DNA of 64,000 nucleotides from Thermoplasmatota archaeon (GCA_029259115.1 JAPDJO010000076.1:12447-76446); one strand, 5' to 3'; shown: positions 1-9,421, counted from the first letter of the stretch. The notes: a model not told the origin generated them from the sequence alone. Translations and numbers: made by a program.

Positions 1-21
1 TGGGATGATGAGCTTGCAAAA

Positions 22-720
22 ATGAACAAAGGTAAGGTTGGTAAACCTTTTGTCTATCCTCAAACATTCATCTATTTCTCTTCTTTCATCTACATCGCTT
101 TTCTACCATATCGACAGATAGAGGGATTCTTCAGAAAACTTTCAGAGTTTATACCTAAATTAAAATCTGCAGATTACTCTACCCTCTGTAAAAGGTTGAA
201 GAAATTGGACGTTAATCTTCCAGAAAATCTCGGGAAAGAGCAAAAGAAGAGGGATTTCAAAAAGGTACATATTCTCGTCGATTTGCTATCCAAGAAAATA
301 ATCTACTGTTTGTTAACAAAAGGAACATCATCAGATTCAAAACAACTCAAAAAGATGCTAAGGGGATGCAAAGGATGGACCAAGATAGAGATCATTTTGG
401 GTGATACAGGCTATGATACAAGGGAATGCTTTGATGAAATCGATGAGTTTGGTGCGATTCCCGTAATAAAGGTAAGGAAAAATTCCTCCTCTTTATCAAG
501 AGGTTCCCCAGTTAGGAGGAAAGCTGTTATTGCCCAAAAGCGTGACAATGAAAAATGGAGGAGAGAAGTTCATTATACTATGGAGATGCGTGGTTGAAAG
601 CATATTTTCAGGGGGTAAAACGCAGATTTGGAGAATACCTCTTTAGTGTTAAAGAGGTATTTAGGAGAGTTGAGGTATGGTTGAGAACATACTCTGGAAT
701 GTACTGATATATCTGAGGAG
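22..720 (+). pseudogene. IS5-like DDE transposase, decayed (internal deletion and 3' frameshifts; 5' end may lie outside the window)
   Basis: Motifs GKPFVYP, LPYRQIEG, DYSTLCKR, K-V-H-I-L-V-D and GDTGYD. The first catalytic-Asp segment appears to be missing. The C-terminal VESIFS/GVKRRFGE continues only in shifted frames after 590. Confidence 0.8.
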
Positions 721-904
721 AGAATATATTACACAAAGTATATCAACTCGATAAACTATTGTTATCAGAGTCAAAACTAATTTTTCCTAGAAAATACAGC
801 GGAGAGTGGAGAGGGAAAGAGCTGCTGTGTATTGATAAAAAATAAATTGGAAAAGAGTATGGAATAGATATTTCCCATATCCGAGGTAAACCGATATTAG
901 TGAA

Positions 905-1210
905 ATGATGCCACTATATAAATAATTAGAATAATGCAAGCAATCGAGAAAGATAGATACAACTCCAGAAATAAAATATTTAGATAATGGATATAGAATT
1001 TTTTTATATAATCATGGCTAGAACTTAAACTGTCATATCTCAAGGAACCCAAAATGGAAATTTTGTGAGCGATGCAGGATGCTTGGTCGTCAAATCTTTA
1101 CCGCATGTTCAGAATGTTCAGTCAGCAGACCATGTAACATGATTGTAACGCGGATGTCCGTATGCACGAATCACTTTCGTACACATGATAAGTATATAAA
1201 AAATCAATAA
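905..1210 (+). pseudogene. Decayed copy of the Cys-rich secreted peptide family
   Basis: Manual translation: MMPLYK* (905), IRIMQAIE (shifted frame), then KIDTTPEIKYLDNGYRIF...TAG(1019)...FCERCRMLGRQIFTACSECSVSRPCNMIVTRMSVC...* (1210). The motif order matches the intact copies. Confidence 0.6.
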
Positions 1211-1245
1211 CAGTTATATGTGCTAAAGAGATTTATAATTTCAAA

Positions 1246-3735
1246 ATGGATATCGAGAAATTGTATCATGCGATTAATATTGCAATACTGTTTGTTGTGA
1301 TATCAATCGCAGGCAATATGGTAGGTTTTTTAGGCAAACCATTATCTTCCTTTTATATTTCTATTTCTGTACTTACTCTATCTTTTTTGAATCTATATAG
1401 GGATCGAAAAAATACAAAATTTCCTAAATCCTATAAAGAAACCAAATTAATCACAGGATACCTTTTGATTATACTTTCTCTAATTCTAGCATTTAGCTAC
1501 AATTTTAATCATCTTTACCCTGTCATATCTATCCCTATTCTATTCATAGGTCTAGACATTATTGGAAAAACAAAAGTAGAAACTGATGTAATGGTGGTAT
1601 CTTCAACTCTATGTATACTTCTTCTAATTCTTTTAGACACAAATTCAATAGCTTGGTTTATAGTAAATGATTTTTCCAAAAACATATCAATCTCGGTCAC
1701 ATCACTTACAGGTAGATACTATATCCTTGGATATTCATCAAGCGGATTCTTTATGTTTATCCTTTCGCTTTCAATCGCTCTTGTAATAATACTATTCTCA
1801 AAAAGATTAAAGCAATTCTTCATTTACCCACTTTTGCTACTTCTGATCTGGATCACATATATACTTACCTTGGGTGTAATAAATTTCGATACAAACGGTG
1901 ATACTGTTAGATTCTTACCAATTCTATGCTTAGCCTTCGCATCTATCTTAGCATTTCAGATTTATAAGAGTGAATTGAGAAAACAAAAGAAAAAAAGACC
2001 AAAATTCATCATTAATTTCATCATCTTCTTATTAATATCAACTTCGGTACTCATGCTCATTATTTCACCATGTCAAATTAAACCAACTAAAAGAGAAAGA
2101 ATACTCTTTTATGGGGAAAATATGCTGGGGACATGGGATACCCCAGAATATGGAAAGTATGGTAGGCTTGCACCTGGTATGTTTGGTCTGCTGCCTTACT
2201 ATCTGAAAATTTATGGCTATAACTGCACAATTTTTACAAAAAATATCACGAAATTTGTAGAAAGAAATCAACCAACATATGAAAATCTAACCAGATATGT
2301 CAACCTGACAGAATTTGTAAATTTTATAGAGGATGAAAGAGTAACAGAGGATATTCTTAAAAAATTCGATGTTTTTGTTGTAATAAACCTTAATACCACA
2401 TTCTCAAACGAGGAAAAAAAAGCGATATGGAAATTTGTTGAGGATGGTGGATCTCTTCTTGTTTTAGGAGATCACACTGGCATGGATAATCTCATGACAT
2501 CTTTGAATAATCTCCTTGAGGGTAAGGGTATAGCCTTTAGATTCGATTCAGCCTTACCTTTAGATCCAGCAAATAGCTGGTTGACCTGTTACAATAAGAT
2601 GAATAATCCAGTAAATTTCGGAATATCAAATGAGGAAATAGAAATAAGCATAGGTGCATCCTTGAACATAACTCCTCCAGCATTCCCAGTAATAGTTGGT
2701 GATTTTGCATTTTCAGATTACGGTGATGTTACAAATGTCGAAAATGCATATTTAGGAGATTACAAGTATGGTAAAGGAGAATTGCTTGGAAATGTGGTAT
2801 TGGTTGCAGGACGATATTATGGTAAGGGGAGAGTTCTAGTTTTTGGTGACACAACAACATTTCAAAATCCGTCTCTTTCCCTATCACATAGATTTGTATC
2901 AAGAATTTTTAGTTGGCTAGCGAATGGCAATAGTTGGGAGATAGATGTTGCAAAGCAGGTATTATCCTTTGTATTACTCATCTTTGCCGCAATTTTACTC
3001 TCTAAGAATCAGGATTTCAAATTACTCCCATTTGCATTGTTACTTGCTATAATCCTCTCTATCTTCATTAATTCTCAGCTGATAAAAGATGCTGAGCCTG
3101 AAGGTCCTTTGATGTATATAGATACAACGCATGTCAATGGATTCTCGATCTCTCCTTTTAATACAAAATCTCTAACTGGAACAATAATAAACTTTGCAAG
3201 AAACGGTTACCTGCCTTTGATTTCAGAAGATTTTAGTTACAGCAGAATTAACAAATCATCGATACTTCTAATTGTTGCTCCAAATGAACCATTTTCTGAT
3301 GAAGAAGTCAAAGATATGATGAGATTCATGGAAAGCGGTGGATTGATCATACTTAGTTCTGGATATCAATGTAGAGATTGTGTAATACCTCTGTTAAATA
3401 AGTTTAAATTAGATATAGACAACATTCCTTTAGGTCCAGCCCCTTACGTTGAGGAAAATCCAGAGGAGCACCAGATGGAGCCAAAATTTGTCGATGCCTG
3501 GCCGATATTGGTAATGAACAAAACAGCTGTATCATACTACGATCTTTACATCGAAAACCAGACATATACTCTAGCAGTTTTTATAAAGCATGGAAAAGGA
3601 GGGCTAATACTAATAGCGGATAACGAATTCTTCTTAGACAAAAATATAGAATCGATAAACTCGATTTGGCCTGGAAATATCCAGTTTATTAAAAATATGA
3701 TCGATGATGTTAGGGAGAGAGGTGTTTTAAGATGA
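1246..3735 (+). CDS. Polytopic membrane protein with two GATase-like (DUF4350/GIFT-like) domains; N-terminal region exosortase-like
   Basis: 829 aa: many N-terminal TM helices, FSNEEKKAIWKFVEDGGSLLVLGDHT...GKGRVLVFGD, a TM hairpin, then FSDEEVKDMMRFMESGGLIIL...GKGGLILIAD. Confidence 0.7.
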   Translation: MDIEKLYHAINIAILFVVISIAGNMVGFLGKPLSSFYISISVLTLSFLNLYRDRKNTKFPKSYKETKLITGYLLIILSLILAFSYNFNHLYPVISIPILFIGLDIIGKTKVETDVMVVSSTLCILLLILLDTNSIAWFIVNDFSKNISISVTSLTGRYYILGYSSSGFFMFILSLSIALVIILFSKRLKQFFIYPLLLLLIWITYILTLGVINFDTNGDTVRFLPILCLAFASILAFQIYKSELRKQKKKRPKFIINFIIFLLISTSVLMLIISPCQIKPTKRERILFYGENMLGTWDTPEYGKYGRLAPGMFGLLPYYLKIYGYNCTIFTKNITKFVERNQPTYENLTRYVNLTEFVNFIEDERVTEDILKKFDVFVVINLNTTFSNEEKKAIWKFVEDGGSLLVLGDHTGMDNLMTSLNNLLEGKGIAFRFDSALPLDPANSWLTCYNKMNNPVNFGISNEEIEISIGASLNITPPAFPVIVGDFAFSDYGDVTNVENAYLGDYKYGKGELLGNVVLVAGRYYGKGRVLVFGDTTTFQNPSLSLSHRFVSRIFSWLANGNSWEIDVAKQVLSFVLLIFAAILLSKNQDFKLLPFALLLAIILSIFINSQLIKDAEPEGPLMYIDTTHVNGFSISPFNTKSLTGTIINFARNGYLPLISEDFSYSRINKSSILLIVAPNEPFSDEEVKDMMRFMESGGLIILSSGYQCRDCVIPLLNKFKLDIDNIPLGPAPYVEENPEEHQMEPKFVDAWPILVMNKTAVSYYDLYIENQTYTLAVFIKHGKGGLILIADNEFFLDKNIESINSIWPGNIQFIKNMIDDVRERGVLR

Positions 3736-6197
3736 AAAAATCTCTTCTCTGGTTAGCTGCGATATTAATTTCATTTTCTCCACTTTATTTATTATATGTA
3801 AATGAACCCCCAAATGTAGAGATTGGGCTTTTTACGGTATTTGTGGCGACATTTCTTCTTATATTTTCCGATTATAGATTCGAAATGGGTAGTAAAACAT
3901 CAATTTTCCTTCTAATTCCTTCACTCATCGTAGTTTTCCTACTCGACTTTCCCTTCAACATAGGCTTTATAATGCTATCAATAGCTATCATTCTAAATAT
4001 AGCGTTATCTTATGTTGGTATACTTGAGAAAATACAGAAACTAGTCAGTGGCATTTTTCTCAGCGGCATTTTACTACTAATCGTGTATGCCTTTTATCCG
4101 CTATATTCTGTGATATTCTCTCGCTACCATAGAGTCGACATTTTGAATAATCTCTTTTCTGGATTGCTTCATCTTTTCGGAATCCAATCAAGCGTTAATA
4201 ATAATCTAATTTACATCCAAACGTATAACCAAACCTTCCCCTTTACAGTGACATGGGAGAAATTATGCATCCTCATCTGGTTAAATCTTTTCTTAATATT
4301 TTTATTCATCTCCTTTCTATCGTTCAACAAAAAGAGATTTCTCAGAAATCTTGGGATATTCATCCTGATAGCTTTGTTTTACTCAGTATTCAGACTTCTC
4401 CTCACTACGATAATTTACTCCCAAAACTCCAAACTAAGTACATTCTGGGATACAAACCTAGCCCTTTTAACCTTTATACCTCTCTTCATCCCCCTTTCTT
4501 TACTTATAAAAACTAATGAGGTAAAAATCGATATGTCTTTCGGAAAGATCAATAAAAAAACATCTGTAACCATGTTGACACTCTTCCTATCGATATTCTT
4601 CCTAATAGGATCAATAGCTTTTGAAGATCCTGGAATAAGGAAATCTGGAAAAATTCTCATAGATGAGGTTCATAGCGATTGGGAGGATACAACAAGAGAG
4701 ATGGATAAAGAATGGTATGGTATGCTGTCAACCTACAATTACTACTGTTGGGCCAAGTGGTTGGATGTTTACTATGATGTTGATATAAACACCAACAGAA
4801 GCTTGACTTATGACTTGCTGAAGAATTACGATATTTTAATAATAAAATGCCCTACTAGTCTATTTTCAGATAAAGAAATTGATGCCATTCTTAGATTTGT
4901 GAAGGAGGGCGGCGGACTCTATCTTATAGGTGATCACACCAACGTATTTGGAATGAATTTTTACTTAAATCAAATCTCGAAAAAATTAGGAATAGAATTT
5001 AAGACGGACGCAACATATGAGCTGAACACAGGATCATTATCTGTATATAAACCCCCTTCTTTATTTGCACATCCGATTGTTAAAAATATTAATAAATTCG
5101 AATTTCAAACATCTTGCTCATTAAATGCACCTCTGTTTTCAGAGAACGTCATAATAGGCTATGGTTTACTTGGTGAGCCTGGGACCTATTCAACAGAAAA
5201 TTTCTTTAGAGAACCACTCTCTTCACCAGATGTAGAATATGGGTTACTTCTCCAGACAGTAGCTCTCCAGTATGGTAAAGGAAGAGTGGTTGCGTTTACA
5301 GATAGTACATGTTTTTCTAACTTCTGCGTATTTATGGATGGATACAGAGAATTTAACCTTGGAGTTATAGAATATCTCAATAGGATAAACGCCTACAACT
5401 ACGTCAACACCCTGTTTGTGATAGCTTTTATCATTCTCCTTATAGTCTCGATAATCTTTATCAAGGAGGAAAAAGTGGGGAAAATAGTATCTATCTTCTT
5501 TTTCTCTACATCGATCGCGTTTGCAACATCGGCACCCCTTTTTGATTACATTAACTCAATTAACTACGAGCTGCCAAGCATAGAAGAGCACCCAATGGTA
5601 TGTTTTGATATGGAACATTCAGGAATAGAAATATCTCCATATGCCCATATGGAACTCCACGATCCTGCGGATGTGTATAACACATTCTTTGTATGGACTC
5701 AAAGAGTTGGATGGATGCCCTCGGTGGAGAAAACGATAGAGAAATCTATTGAAAAGGGAGATGCTATAATTATCATAAATCCAAACAAATCATTCAGCGA
5801 TGGAGAAATTGAAAAGATTAGAAAATATGTCGAGGAAGGAGGAAGATTATTAGTTTTAGACTCCATAAGAAATAAGGATTCCACTGCAAATCAAATTTTA
5901 AATACATTTAACATGGAGTTATCCACGGAAACATCGAACTTATCTCTGAGATGTGATAACTCTAGTATAGGGAATATCACGATTCCATATCTCTCAATCA
6001 TCGGTGGGGACGTTAATTTTTCCTTCAATAACAACACCTATATTTCTATTAAGGAGTTTGGAGAAGGAAAAATCGTGGCAATAGTTGATTCCTATACGTT
6101 TAGCGATGAGGTTATGGGGGATGTCTTTACTGAGCCAGATGAGAAACTCAGAGCAATATATGATGTAGAATATTACATACTCGAAGCTTCTAATTAA
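3732..6197 (+). CDS. Paralogous polytopic membrane protein with two GATase-like (DUF4350/GIFT-like) domains; exosortase-like N-terminal region
   Basis: 821 aa with ATGA overlap to the upstream gene and the same architecture (FVKEGGGLYLIGDHT, GKGRVVAFTDS, YVEEGGRLLVLD). The segment VTWEKLC...YSVFRLLL recalls the exosortase Cys/Arg region. Confidence 0.7.
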   Translation: MKKSLLWLAAILISFSPLYLLYVNEPPNVEIGLFTVFVATFLLIFSDYRFEMGSKTSIFLLIPSLIVVFLLDFPFNIGFIMLSIAIILNIALSYVGILEKIQKLVSGIFLSGILLLIVYAFYPLYSVIFSRYHRVDILNNLFSGLLHLFGIQSSVNNNLIYIQTYNQTFPFTVTWEKLCILIWLNLFLIFLFISFLSFNKKRFLRNLGIFILIALFYSVFRLLLTTIIYSQNSKLSTFWDTNLALLTFIPLFIPLSLLIKTNEVKIDMSFGKINKKTSVTMLTLFLSIFFLIGSIAFEDPGIRKSGKILIDEVHSDWEDTTREMDKEWYGMLSTYNYYCWAKWLDVYYDVDINTNRSLTYDLLKNYDILIIKCPTSLFSDKEIDAILRFVKEGGGLYLIGDHTNVFGMNFYLNQISKKLGIEFKTDATYELNTGSLSVYKPPSLFAHPIVKNINKFEFQTSCSLNAPLFSENVIIGYGLLGEPGTYSTENFFREPLSSPDVEYGLLLQTVALQYGKGRVVAFTDSTCFSNFCVFMDGYREFNLGVIEYLNRINAYNYVNTLFVIAFIILLIVSIIFIKEEKVGKIVSIFFFSTSIAFATSAPLFDYINSINYELPSIEEHPMVCFDMEHSGIEISPYAHMELHDPADVYNTFFVWTQRVGWMPSVEKTIEKSIEKGDAIIIINPNKSFSDGEIEKIRKYVEEGGRLLVLDSIRNKDSTANQILNTFNMELSTETSNLSLRCDNSSIGNITIPYLSIIGGDVNFSFNNNTYISIKEFGEGKIVAIVDSYTFSDEVMGDVFTEPDEKLRAIYDVEYYILEASN

Positions 6198-6232
6198 TTA
6201 TAACTAAAAGTGAATGCTGTAAGAATGAGTCT

Positions 6233-6476
6233 TTGATCTTAGTAGATAGAGGACCCTGGTATAAATGAGCTCTATAGAGATTGGGATTGAGATACGTTCG
6301 TCAAACCCTTGGAGAAAGGAGTGTTATAGAACAATGGTGTAGTCTGTTCAAAGCTAGAGTAAAACGATTCTGGAAAAGATTTCCATATCACAGCTTACTG
6401 GATAGTATTAAAACTTGGACAATAGTGTGGTGTGCCATCTATAATCTATGCTGGAGGTGGGAAAGTTGACAGTGTC
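6233..6476 (+). mobile_element. IS6-family element 3' remnant with right terminal inverted repeat
   Basis: LVDRGPWYK*AL*RLGL...ERSVIEQW...KRF...YN with in-frame stops at 6266 and 6275. It ends in GTTGACAGTGTC (6465-6476), similar to the end of the IS at 43706-43717. Confidence 0.75.
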
Positions 6477-6526
6477 AGCAAAAGTGAGATAAAATTTTAT
6501 ATATGAGAGAATATATACTCTTATTG

Positions 6527-6901
6527 ATGGTTAAAAGGAGAGTTGGCATAGTCGTATTATCAATTCTTCTGGTGATATTATCCTACCATACTTTGATAAC
6601 TCCAGTCAGTACAACGAGAGCCATTTTACATAAAGGTAACCAACCACATCCGCTTTTCAAAATAAGAGCATACACTGCTGCAGAAAAAAATCTCCCAGAA
6701 ATAGATGCAAAATATCTAAATAAGATCTCTATCATTTCGTCGTTAATATGGCTAAGCCATCAGAAGTTCACTCACAATCAAAAACATGCTACATTAGTAC
6801 CACCTACGTGTAACTGTAAAACAGGTCCTATAAGTTGCTTCTGCTGTATTCTCGGCACAACTTTAGCCTGCTTCCGCCATACGGTTTGGTGCAACATGTA
6901 G
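6527..6901 (+). CDS. Secreted Cys-rich precursor-like peptide, copy 1
   Basis: Basic-hydrophobic signal (MVKRRVGIVVLSILLVIL), then HPLFKIRA...KYL, then a tail with 7 Cys. Alternative start at 6503. Confidence 0.75.
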   Translation: MVKRRVGIVVLSILLVILSYHTLITPVSTTRAILHKGNQPHPLFKIRAYTAAEKNLPEIDAKYLNKISIISSLIWLSHQKFTHNQKHATLVPPTCNCKTGPISCFCCILGTTLACFRHTVWCNM

Positions 6902-6909
6902 AAACAATG

Positions 6910-8298
6910 TCAGACAAACAGAAGAGTCACATTGTCCCAAACAGAATTCCCATATTTATCGTATGCCTTCGCCTCTATTCTATGTTCCCCCTTTAAATTC
7001 TTTTTAATTTTCCACTCGAACGGAGCAGAGGTAGCTGTATGCTCTAAGTTGCCATCAAGATAAAATTCCACCTTTTTACCCCCCTCTACGTATGCTACTA
7101 CTGTTATATCTCCAATAATAACCGTCTTACCGATTCTCGCTAAAATCCTTTCTAAAAGTTTCCCTGTTTTGATCTCTTTGTCATTTACATACAGCCTGTA
7201 AATCATTTTGCCTTGAGGTTTTGTTATAAAGACCATCAATTCGTTACATGGAGGAAGATCCTCATCTGGAACTTTTGCTAGCCATGCCACAACTCTTCTG
7301 TGAATCCACCAATTTTTACTCATGTTCAATGTTGTACCATTATACCAAGCGTATACTATTCTTGGAATGCCCAGGGTATTTCTTCCAAAGAACTCTTTTA
7401 TGGTCCCATTTACCATTACAGGAATCTCAGGATGGGATGAAAGCAGAACAATTCTCCCACTATTGTTATATGTTGTTGCGATACCTGCAAATTGCCCTTT
7501 GATATCAGTCTTTATCACCCTATCCTTTATCCATCCTATCAAAGCTTTCTTCCAGAAATGTATAGGTTTAGTTTCCATTAGCTCCTCATTGTATATCAGA
7601 AGAGGTGTAATTTTACCTAATCTAGAGTCATTAGAATCTGCTATATACATTCCCGCGCCGCCGCCGTAAGAGATGTTAAATACATCCTTCTCAAAAGGTA
7701 GAAAAATTGGATTGTTAACTTCTCTATTTATTCTAACTTCTATTGGTATTTGACCGAATCTTGGACTTACCCACTCAGACTCTTTCAACAAATATTGCAA
7801 CTCCCCATCAAAGTCATCATTTAGATATATGTTAGCTATTCTGAGCACGCCTTTGTTCACCTCTTTTTCGAACCAATTATCGGGATTCTCATAACCCTGA
7901 GATGCCAAGAATGCTCCTGCACACACGCCATAAAAACCTTTTCCATCTGATAGGAATCTTTTAATAGCTTTCCTAAAATTTGGATTTTTCCCATCTTTGA
8001 GATATGATCTGTAGTTTGCTCCAGCGATAAAGACATCGTAATCCTTTAAAATGGAATAAAAGCCCTTAGATCTTACTTCTTCATAACTCAACTCGTGCAC
8101 CTCGAATCTGTATGACTTGTTATGAATTCTCCAAGCATAATTTAGAGACAGTTTGAGAGATTCATCCGAACCCGTTCCTTTAGGGTAAATAGCAACCTTT
8201 ATTATTCTCTCATTGAGATTTCCTGTGGAACTATGGACTATCAGTGTGGAGAAGACGAAAGAGACGGCAATCAATAGAGATATTATCCTGATCCACAT
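6910..8298 (-). CDS. Secreted class I GATase-like (BPL_N-type) hydrolase with C-terminal Ig-like domain
   Basis: Start moved to MWIRIISLL (8298, signal peptide). Nucleophile elbow GVCAGA, HPE motif, C-terminal KVEFYLDG...APFEW...GEHRIEAKAYD. Confidence 0.75.
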   Translation of the reverse strand: MWIRIISLLIAVSFVFSTLIVHSSTGNLNERIIKVAIYPKGTGSDESLKLSLNYAWRIHNKSYRFEVHELSYEEVRSKGFYSILKDYDVFIAGANYRSYLKDGKNPNFRKAIKRFLSDGKGFYGVCAGAFLASQGYENPDNWFEKEVNKGVLRIANIYLNDDFDGELQYLLKESEWVSPRFGQIPIEVRINREVNNPIFLPFEKDVFNISYGGGAGMYIADSNDSRLGKITPLLIYNEELMETKPIHFWKKALIGWIKDRVIKTDIKGQFAGIATTYNNSGRIVLLSSHPEIPVMVNGTIKEFFGRNTLGIPRIVYAWYNGTTLNMSKNWWIHRRVVAWLAKVPDEDLPPCNELMVFITKPQGKMIYRLYVNDKEIKTGKLLERILARIGKTVIIGDITVVAYVEGGKKVEFYLDGNLEHTATSAPFEWKIKKNLKGEHRIEAKAYDKYGNSVWDNVTLLFV

Positions 8299-8411
8299 AT
8301 CACTAATAATTTCTACTTGATTAAATATATATTTTATCATACAATTACTTTCACAAGAGTTAAAACAAAAGATTTTTATATAATAAAAACCAATATAAAT
8401 TTGGTGATCTA

Positions 8412-8849
8412 ATGAATGTAAGACTTGCAGTAACTGGGATGGTGATGATTTCCCTGATAATCTTTGCAGGTCTAGGAGTAGCAATGACCAAATCCAAAAC
8501 AGAAGAAAAAGTTTCACCATTATATAAGATCAGAACACTTCAGTCAATAAAAGAAAAAGTCAGCACACTGAAAGCATCCTACTTAAGTAACAGAATCTTT
8601 GTTTGGTCACTGCTGAAATATTTACTTGAAAGATATAAGGAAAACCATCAAGAATTTTCTACCGTGTGTTCCATATGTAAGACAAGAGGCTGCAGACTAT
8701 CCCTACCACTGGATGATGGGAGAGAGGATCTATCAACGAGAGAATATTTCTGTAAAACATATGTAAAGTGCAAACCGCCAGTAGGCTTGCAGAACCATCA
8801 GATGATTTCTAGAGTAATAGCACCTTCATACTGCATAAAGTGCCTATAA
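8412..8849 (+). CDS. Secreted Cys-rich precursor-like peptide, copy 2
   Basis: GGTGA RBS, signal peptide, TEEKVSPLYKIRTLQSI...RIFVWSLLK, 7 Cys, ends ISRVIAPSYCIKCL. Confidence 0.8.
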   Translation: MNVRLAVTGMVMISLIIFAGLGVAMTKSKTEEKVSPLYKIRTLQSIKEKVSTLKASYLSNRIFVWSLLKYLLERYKENHQEFSTVCSICKTRGCRLSLPLDDGREDLSTREYFCKTYVKCKPPVGLQNHQMISRVIAPSYCIKCL

Positions 8850-8967
8850 TTTAATCAGGAGCAATTTCCTTACCTCTTTTGATCATCTCTTCAATTTGTG
8901 AATCATTTTATAAAATCAAATAGAAATTTTTATAGTACCAAAAACAAATATCAAACTGGTGAGAACA

Positions 8968-9363
8968 ATGGATATGAAGTCTATAATTCTTGTGTCTATA
9001 ATAATGGTATCCTTTCTATTTGCCAGCCTAGCAAATGCCTTCTCAACAGAACGCACAGAGAAGAAAGTCTCACCCCTATTCAAAATCAGAACCCTACAAT
9101 CTATAGAGGATAAGACTATCAATCTAAAGGTAGACCACCTAAAGGAAAGGATTTTCATTTGGTCACTACTGAAGTTCCTAATCGAGAACAGAGGAGAAGG
9201 GCGAATTTTAGAAGGATTCACTGTTACTTGGATATGCACATACAACTGTAAATCTGTATATACTCCTGTATGTCCAGGAATAACAAGGCATTCACAAATT
9301 CAACAACCTCTCATTTCCAGGGTTGCGACGACCCCATCATACTGTATAAAGTGTCCATCTTGA
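8968..9363 (+). CDS. Secreted Cys-rich precursor-like peptide, copy 3
   Basis: GGTGA RBS, signal peptide ending ANA, TEKKVSPLFKIRTLQSI...RIFIWSLLK, 5 Cys, ends ISRVATTPSYCIKCPS. Confidence 0.8.
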   Translation: MDMKSIILVSIIMVSFLFASLANAFSTERTEKKVSPLFKIRTLQSIEDKTINLKVDHLKERIFIWSLLKFLIENRGEGRILEGFTVTWICTYNCKSVYTPVCPGITRHSQIQQPLISRVATTPSYCIKCPS

Positions 9364-9421
9364 CAGAATTAAAACCTCTATTACCAGTCGCAATCTTTTA
9401 GATTAGAGAATCCATAAATGA

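Follow-up and report, generated by a model that had tools for sequence, protein, structure and literature searches.

In a 64,000-nucleotide stretch of the genome of a Thermoplasmatota archaeon (JAPDJO010000076.1:12447-76446; called the window below, with position 1 at C5:12447, where C5, C4 and C3 are contigs of the same genome), we found a group of genes for short, Cys-rich secreted peptides that stand together with genes for two paralogous membrane proteins, A and B, and for a secreted protein with a Cys-His-Glu triad, c15. The features are collected in Table 1, and all coordinates refer to the whole window unless a contig or locus is named. The peptides begin with a signal peptide, which is directly followed by a conserved N-terminal module of about 45 residues and a variable tail. 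Across related genomes the module and the A-B pair are distributed together and are usually neighbors, and in the host genome they share one mobile island with c15. We propose, with a confidence a little short of even, that these genes represent a conserved, lineage-specific extracytoplasmic system of three parts, in which A and B would read the module as a tag and the cargo would be matured by a secreted thiol enzyme. Recognition of the module, cleavage, the assignment of the steps to particular proteins and the role of the peptides are what we infer from this pattern.

The three intact peptide genes of the window encode proteins that share M1, the sequence P-L-[YF]-K-I-R, further columns and an N-terminal hydrophobic signal, while their tails differ. 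Seven intact copies of the family are present in the host genome (1.40 Mb, 94 contigs, 98.7% complete): the three in the window, one just upstream of it (C5:11883-12257, minus strand, 190 bp upstream of the window start) and three elsewhere beside housekeeping genes. A word-indexed search returned only one near-identical protein. When a profile of these copies was run against 1.84 billion representatives, 230 clusters scored E<=1e-3 and 13 of them reached E<=1e-10; nearly all are 95-160 amino acids (aa) in length. Since there are seven intact paralogues in the genome and 230 clusters among the representatives, the family resemblance is not due to chance. The original prediction named membership of an already characterized family as one of the points on which it would fall; no model of Pfam or NCBIfam matches the seven genome copies or four typical family members. 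The ESM Atlas gave no usable match to the 8968 peptide, and a full-text search of the literature, which included passages of genome papers on the order, found no description of the family.

The predicted architecture of signal peptide, conserved pro-region and variable Cys-rich tail was borne out across the family. In 147 of the 150 best matches the module motif S-P-L-[YF]-x-[IV]-R is present (S 93%, P 100%, L 100%, [IV] about 80%, R 96%), with its Pro at a median position of residue 37, and the module as a whole reads S-P-L-[YF]-x-[IV]-R ... [FY]-L-G. A hydrophobic N-terminal run was found in 146 of 150 and a small-x-small site of the signal-peptidase type ahead of the motif in 143 of 147. 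Cys is restricted to the tail, the front part being free of it in 126 of 146 proteins. The tails have a median length of 47 residues and are rich in Thr (10.5%) and Cys (10.1%); before a Cys, Thr is enriched 1.95-fold at position -1 and Pro 2.05-fold at position -2. The spacing between Cys residues is mostly 3-7 residues, and the last Cys lies at most two residues from the C-terminus in 82 of 140 tails. Among 145 tails, the Cys count is even in 75 and odd in 70. Given this parity and the anoxic sediment and vent habitat (taken from the organism labels of sequencing runs), a fixed disulfide knot seems unlikely for the short peptides, while metal binding, intermolecular links or thiol chemistry are possible. 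One metagenome protein (P0011, 339 aa) has three tandem repeats of module and Cys-rich tail. Also, one of the dispersed host copies (C4:65753-66121) lies just upstream of genes for an MfnA-like decarboxylase and a phosphoribosyltransferase; it may be left over from an earlier arrangement, since the same spot in genome G058 (locus L043) adjoins a block of pair, c15 and peptide.

The original prediction tied the pro-region to Cys-rich peptides, and in this it was too narrow, as the same module also heads larger membrane-anchored proteins. In related genera, open reading frames (ORFs) of 190-250 aa are matched by the profile over positions 1-65 only. These long forms, of about 220 aa in most genomes, have a signal peptide, the pattern S-P-L-F-x-[VI]-R-T ... 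Y-L-G-K-G and then a helical region, and 30 of 31 end in a C-terminal hydrophobic anchor; among the short forms a hydrophobic run after residue 60 occurs in 5 of 150. In the single-contig genome G068 (2.3 Mb), where all 110 candidates were scored, 40 module genes were counted at E<=1e-6, of which three adjoin its one A-B pair; two relatives of G068 have 16 and 38 module genes. From its presence on anchored proteins of about 220 aa, up to 40 per genome, the module appears to behave more like a general N-terminal tag than like the leader of a ribosomally synthesized and post-translationally modified peptide (RiPP). The module genes of G068 often stand in tandem clusters distant from the pair (e.g. 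1887511-1891945, 738629-740124 and 227312-231399).

The long forms have a companion of their own. A gene for a 347-aa secreted protein, c4 (e.g. L045:10934-11977), follows a long-form module gene in 22 of 22 loci and is directly adjacent in 21. It has an invariant His189 and Cys266 and no family match: Pfam gave none, and a profile search of PDB sequences returned 0 matches. The two invariant residues suggested a C25-like peptidase, and this candidate was rejected. The hhalign probability against the C25 protein of the host genome is 0.1, and neither the PDB-sequence profile search nor a search of the host genome lent support; the only lead to C25 is a weak Atlas feature match to a cluster with PF01364 in 12% of its members.

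The distribution of module and pair was compared in 118 genomes of the order, with module matches counted at E<=1e-4 and the pair defined as adjacent A and B genes. Of the 118, 47 have the module and 44 the pair. The two occur together in 40 genomes; 7 have the module without the pair, 4 the pair without the module, and the remaining 67 have neither. Weak module-like matches (E 1.7e-4 and 4.7e-4) were seen in two of the pair-only genomes. In a sample of 401 genomes from the phylum, G147 is the only genome outside the order with a full-length pair and the only one with the module; its 113-aa motif peptide, with five Cys, is encoded 170 bp from B in convergent orientation.

Adjacency was assessed on crude ORF maps of 41 loci, namely 40 pair loci and the host locus, with G147 not among them. 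In 29 of the 41 the distance between the pair and a module gene is at most 1,241 bp, usually 30-320 bp. One further locus has a truncated module copy, and in six the contig stops on the B side, so that 30 of 35 assessable loci, including the truncated copy, show adjacency. They represent 12 genera, or 13 with G147. The placement of the module gene varies: it may follow B, precede A on either strand or be convergent. The original prediction proposed searching for pro-region matches that co-localize with the gene pair at 1246 and 3732 across archaeal genomes, and by these counts of genomes and loci the outcome was positive.

The predicted pair of paralogous membrane proteins of about 820 aa was confirmed, A and B being 27% identical over residues 349-730. 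From hydropathy and the structural model, each has about nine N-terminal transmembrane (TM) helices and two GATase1-like/GIFT ectodomains with a TM hairpin between them. Pfam assigned the ectodomains of both proteins, with scores over the cut-offs, to IFT52_GIFT, ABC_transp_aux (GldG-like) and DUF4350. A reaches 59.5, 48.7 and 34.3 bits, respectively; B matches ABC_transp_aux with 49.0 bits, and the cut-off of 34.7 bits is exceeded by both. A G-D-H-T motif occupies the position of the amidotransferase nucleophile in the ectodomains of both proteins. The AlphaFold model of B, made with a 27-row alignment, has a predicted local distance difference test score (pLDDT) of 84.3 and a predicted TM-score (pTM) of 0.83. 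In it the first ectodomain covers residues 300-550 and is followed by the TM hairpin and the second ectodomain, and an outer loop (121-179) forms two short helices and a three-stranded sheet. Foldseek matched B at E values of 7e-7 to 1e-4 to ThuA-like/STM3548 GATase1-like proteins, the IFT52 GIFT domain, OST48/Wbp1 and the fourth domain of site-1 protease. When only the TM domain of B was modeled, the pLDDT was 85.8, and for this domain Foldseek found no match in the PDB (best E 0.086, TM-score <=0.20).

B is more conserved than A. Its residues H133, D136, E176 and R221, which belong to the TM domain or to the outer loop of this domain, are invariant and R134, T174 and K177 nearly so, while no charged residue is invariant in the TM domain of A. 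By the positive-inside rule, H133, R134, D136, T174, E176 and K177 are predicted to be in a loop outside the cell. A and B probably form a heteromer with the GIFT/GATase1-like domains extracellular, and we may speculate from residue conservation that B is the active partner and A a scaffold. A co-fold of B with the mature 8968 peptide scored 0.00 without controls, a value that has no bearing either way. At their source the B homologues are named only "hypothetical", "uncharacterized membrane protein" or "DUF4350 domain-containing"; many carry the precomputed Pfam label PF27016.1. Two B orthologues have a long C-terminal extension (G031:C9:629-3181 and G036:C61:4346-6898; ORFs of 1,166-1,174 aa), and neither adjoins a module gene; in G036 the module gene is 4.5 kb from the pair.

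For c15, described in the original prediction as a secreted Cys-His-Glu hydrolase, the triad and the N-terminal hydrophobic signal stood; together with matches to BPL_N and Big_7 they make the protein a putative hydrolase. The window protein matches BPL_N with 20.1 bits, below the cut-off of 24.2, and an orthologue reaches 31.3 bits; besides BPL_N only Big_7 was matched. Among its 69 homologues the best name is "BPL-N domain-containing protein", from Thermoplasmatota metagenome-assembled genomes, and most carry the precomputed label PF09825. In the alignment of 70 rows, C126 is kept in 68, H289 in 65 and E291 in 70, and the full triad in 63; two of the misses are fragments. The homologues also keep a G-x-C-x-G elbow and an H-[PA]-E motif. 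The predicted link between this protein and the short peptides proved specific: close orthologues (E<1e-170) have one or two short module peptides adjacent in 7 of 7 loci from six genomes, three of these loci being on contigs without the A-B pair, while five more distant paralogues have no module-peptide neighbor. No synthase gene is adjacent to c15. Its place outside the cell and its domain content, with Big_7 fused to it and no partner domain of the synthase or ligase type, make a hydrolase or a transamidase more probable than an amidotransferase. A c15 paralogue of 349 aa (G000 C3:70356-71372, E 2.5e-75) has no module peptide nearby.

In the host genome the pair, c15, four of the seven intact peptide genes and the pseudogene are on one mobile island of 10,110 bp (C5:11758-21867, or window -688 to 9421). 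Its order is peptide gene, IS5, pseudogene, A, B, IS6 fragment, peptide gene, c15 and two peptide genes. In the closest relative (G004, same genus; its GyrA is 92% identical to the GyrA encoded on the same contig as the island), the genes for an RsmB/F methyltransferase and a C25 peptidase are divergent and 82 bp apart, compared with 10,110 bp here. The GC content of the island is 35.0%, against 38.9% in the rest of the contig, and its ends have no terminal repeats longer than 8 nt. Both pair and module are absent from the same-genus genomes searched (0 of 4, 70-96% complete), and in the host genome the ancestral site (deoxyhypusine synthase, creatininase, M24; contig C4) has no pair. Since the pair, four intact peptide genes, the pseudogene and c15 share one insertion that is absent from the relative, the components moved, or were kept, as one unit. 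Contigs from one marine-sediment sample, from a DNA run and an RNA-library run, join position 6179 to 6966/6974 with 71-76 other letters; therefore a close strain exists without the IS6 fragment and the 6527 peptide gene. In two metatranscriptome libraries of one sample, A, B and c15 are partly covered by contigs, and some bins, among them most of 8275-8888, are without coverage; such RNA-library contigs cannot show transcription or its absence.

Table 1. Features of the island within the 64,000-nucleotide window
Feature	Position	Strand	Basis
IS5-family transposase gene, 3' part	1..597	+	Pfam DDE_Tnp_1 63.3 bits; NCBIfam IS5 129 bits, slightly below the cut-off of 140
N-module peptide pseudogene	890..1210	+	tblastn with family member P0094; 3 in-frame stops
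Membrane protein A, 829 aa	1246..3735	+	Pfam matches, hydropathy, orthologue alignment
Membrane protein B, 821 aa, paralogue of A	3732..6197	+	Pfam, alignment, AlphaFold, Foldseek
IS6-family transposase fragment	6281..6469	+	NCBIfam ISC774/IS6, C-terminal 54 residues only, 23.6 bits
N-module peptide, 124 aa, 7 Cys in tail	6527..6901	+	ATG at 6527; ORF opens at 6503
c15, secreted/anchored BPL_N (class I GATase-like) protein, C126-H289-E291 triad, C-terminal Ig-like Big_7	6910..8298	-	Domain scans, orthologues
N-module peptide, 145 aa, 7 Cys in tail	8412..8849	+	ORF and shared columns
N-module peptide, 131 aa, 5 Cys in tail	8968..9363	+	ORF and shared columns
In-window part of the 10,110-bp island (C5:11758-21867)	1..9421	.	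blastn and ORF comparison with genome G004

Some entries of Table 1 need further explanation. The full IS5 ORF is C5:12363-13043, so that it starts 5' of the window and within the island. The A and B genes overlap by 4 nt. The c15 ORF reaches 8520 on the minus strand, but the true start is likely at 8298, where the orthologues begin with a signal peptide. The original prediction of four related peptide genes, one of them decayed, agrees with the three intact ORFs and the pseudogene recovered by tblastn. In the latter, P0094 aligns over 97 residues in one frame of 890-1177 (E 4.4e-11, 29% identity) and the signal-peptide part is missing; a profile hidden Markov model run on the six frames of the stretch alone was not significant. 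The pseudogene lies directly 5' of A, a position held by an intact copy in the loci of two genomes (L041 and L053). The sequence 5' of the island (C5:1-12446) encodes aconitase, two ATP-citrate lyase subunits and isocitrate dehydrogenase, a set of the reverse tricarboxylic acid cycle type, and then two C25 (gingipain-family) peptidases. The two C25 genes were considered as parts of the system and rejected, because the closest relative has a C25 gene without the island and no homologue was found at the 40 other pair loci.

In the proposed system, the module proteins would be exported by Sec and the module, directly behind the signal peptide, would serve as a handling tag or pro-region that is recognized after export, at the membrane surface, by a complex of A and B. 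The variable C-terminal part would then be matured or released, probably with c15 as the nucleophile. The third part would differ with the cargo: c15 with the short Thr/Cys-rich peptides, and c4, another secreted protein, with the long anchored forms. The triple repeat of P0011 fits, because such a protein is expected if each module directs the release of the core behind it. A more specific version, which we regard as doubtful on balance, is a sorting and maturation system unique to the lineage, in which B, a polytopic enzyme with conserved His, Arg, Asp and Glu residues on its outer face and a TM fold not seen among solved structures, and its degenerate paralogue A capture proteins tagged with S-P-L-[YF]-x-[IV]-R through their GIFT ectodomains and, with the Cys-His-Glu enzyme, cleave or attach them. 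Such a system would be an N-terminal counterpart of archaeosortase/PGF-CTERM.

Several observations weigh against the proposed tag-and-maturation system. That the peptides are processed at all is something we infer from their sequences. Pfam and NCBIfam recognize no protease, transferase or transporter domain in A or B, and the fold of the B TM domain matches no solved structure. The long forms keep their anchor (30 of 31), so "release" cannot apply to them as to the short peptides. Seven genomes have module matches and no pair; at least two of these matches are strong (G016 and G115) and several cover the signal-peptide part only, and the module profile includes the signal peptide, which inflates weak scores. 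Five pair loci have both flanks and no adjacent module gene (L057, L059, L061, L064 and L073). In addition, the genomes are related and so do not count as independent cases, and in most of them the pair is flanked by Memo and deoxyhypusine synthase on one side and by creatininase, M24 peptidase, Sua5, HTH and DUF7121 on the other. Because the same housekeeping genes surround the pair in many genomes, the adjacency may be partly inherited. The host island argues against this, as there the system sits at a new site and the ancestral site is without the pair.

The variable tails, the multi-copy genes, the patchy distribution and the island itself, which bears insertion sequences, is richer in AT and is absent from the closest relative, would also be expected of an archaeocin (bacteriocin-like) island, in which the short peptides are antagonistic, c15 is a pro-peptidase and A and B give immunity or aid release. 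The peptide gene that is present or absent between strains agrees with this, and a comparable archaeal case is halocin C8, which is cleaved out of a precursor that the cell exports, as part of its description relates (10.64898/2026.07.27.741052). We nevertheless regard an archaeocin island as unlikely, because in most genomes the module is found on anchored proteins of about 220 aa, in up to 40 copies, which is unlike toxins; the pair is at a fixed chromosomal site and not on islands in many genera; the dispersed copies have no adjacent small gene resembling an immunity gene; and no halocin, bacteriocin or ABC-exporter model of Pfam or NCBIfam was matched. The anchored long forms and the operon-like order of A, B, module gene and c4, with gaps of 30-100 bp, would fit docking subunits: the module proteins would be structural partners of an A/B surface complex (envelope, adhesion or GldG-like) and would retain the module. 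GIFT domains are protein-protein scaffolds in IFT52 and OST48/Wbp1, and to these B was matched by Foldseek. Such a complex is hard to reconcile with 16-40 dispersed paralogues per single pair, with short forms that have no anchor, with the specific linkage of a thiol enzyme with an intact triad and with the existence of a triple-repeat precursor, and we consider it improbable, too.

It is also conceivable that the linkage has no functional meaning, the peptides being independent secreted products (e.g. Thr/Cys peptides of an anaerobe that bind metals or minerals) that share positional ancestry with the pair. The conserved housekeeping block around the pair fits this, as do the three of seven intact host copies that are far from the pair, and the near-equal numbers of odd and even Cys counts are more in keeping with metal binding or links between molecules than with a fixed disulfide fold. 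The genes, however, moved together to a new site in the host genome, their adjacency survives changes of order and strand and extends to the distant G147 lineage, and module and pair co-occur across genomes (40/7/4/67); mere linkage is accordingly very unlikely. A strict RiPP, for which a maturase in the cytoplasm would recognize the conserved region as a leader and act before export, would share the logic of leader and variable core, and the enrichment of Thr and Pro before Cys speaks in its favor. But a Sec-type signal peptide with a cleavage-type site precedes the module, and every linked protein is membrane-bound or secreted. The original prediction had noted the absence of LanB/C/M, YcaO and an adjacent radical SAM protein, and domain scans upheld it: none of these, nor another maturase, was found in the larger island ORFs, the flanking ORFs scanned or the conserved cluster of other genomes (L045). 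We give a strict RiPP hardly any credence.

What is known of how archaea form their cell surface comes mainly from a handful of models, namely Sec/Tat signals, class III signals, lipoboxes and archaeosortase. If the proposed system is real, a tag carried by up to 40 exported proteins per genome, together with one conserved membrane pair, would determine how the surface of these uncultured cells is built or armed, in a lineage that part of the literature places among the most abundant archaea of marine sediments (PMC6461988, PMC9585477). In the more specific version, that of a lineage-own sorting and maturation system, the short Thr/Cys-rich cargos would represent a new class of archaeal peptides that mature outside the cell and spread on mobile islands; as they stand, they are candidate new secreted peptides of archaea, be it antagonism, metal binding or matrix formation that they serve. 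In addition, the fold predicted with confidence for the TM domain of B has no solved relative. With three or four co-expressible genes, the system offers a concrete case for testing.

RiPP, defensin and conotoxin precursors have a conserved front region and a hypervariable C-terminal part, which is Cys-rich in defensins and conotoxins. The original prediction likened the peptides to them, and the likeness stands for the conserved front and the hypervariable Cys-rich end, with P0011 adding three repeats of module and core. The peptides differ from RiPPs by their Sec signal and the lack of a cytoplasmic maturase, and from disulfide-knot peptides in that there is no fixed Cys framework and the Cys number is odd in 70 of 145 tails. 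With BPL_N and other class I glutamine amidotransferase-like proteins, the c15 orthologues share a G-x-C-x-G elbow and an H-P-E motif, and the BPL_N cut-off is exceeded among these orthologues, though not by the window protein; c15 differs from such proteins in that it is outside the cell, is fused to the Ig-like Big_7 and lacks a partner domain of the synthase or ligase type. In A and B, the ectodomains resemble GldG in matching ABC_transp_aux (PF09822) over the cut-off. They differ from it in scoring 25.4 and 35.1 bits with the TIGR03521 equivalog, for which the cut-off is 389.85, and no ABC ATPase or permease of the GldA/GldF type is found in the island or in the conserved cluster of A, B, module gene and c4. 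Unlike GldG and GIFT proteins, A and B also add a TM domain of about 300 residues without a solved look-alike and occur as a paralogous pair.

From the portion of the halocin C8 report that covers it, ProC8 is likewise an exported archaeal precursor whose C-terminal peptide is released by a still unknown protease, and it is encoded in a small cluster with membrane proteins (10.64898/2026.07.27.741052). In contrast to the peptides here, ProC8 is exported through Tat, carries the immunity protein HalI as its N-terminal part and has ABC transporters as neighbors (10.64898/2026.07.27.741052). Lineage and habitat differ as well, and the seven host peptides and four representatives gave no match to halocin C8/HalI at E<=0.1 in Pfam and NCBIfam, which we assume to hold the models of that preprint. 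Sorting signals with a dedicated membrane enzyme are described, in the parts of the literature drawn on here, for sortase/LPXTG, exosortase/PEP-CTERM, archaeosortase/PGF-CTERM, rhombosortase/GlyGly-CTERM and myxosortase/MYXO-CTERM (10.1101/2023.06.07.544157, PMC3237569, PMC11980579). Compared with those accounts, the tag here is N-terminal, behind the signal peptide, and without a trailing TM helix and basic tail. A and B have no sortase or rhomboid domain in Pfam or NCBIfam, and the exosortase model PF09721 has no match at E<=10 in the whole host genome, while the Methanocaldococcus control was detected. The likeness to these systems, as far as those accounts go, is in logic only: many tagged paralogues, a single copy of the machinery with one tagged gene beside it, and co-distribution of tag and machinery. 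The system is built wholly from undescribed or uncharacterized parts, and it is known in kind, either as a tag with its cognate machinery or as a prepropeptide system.

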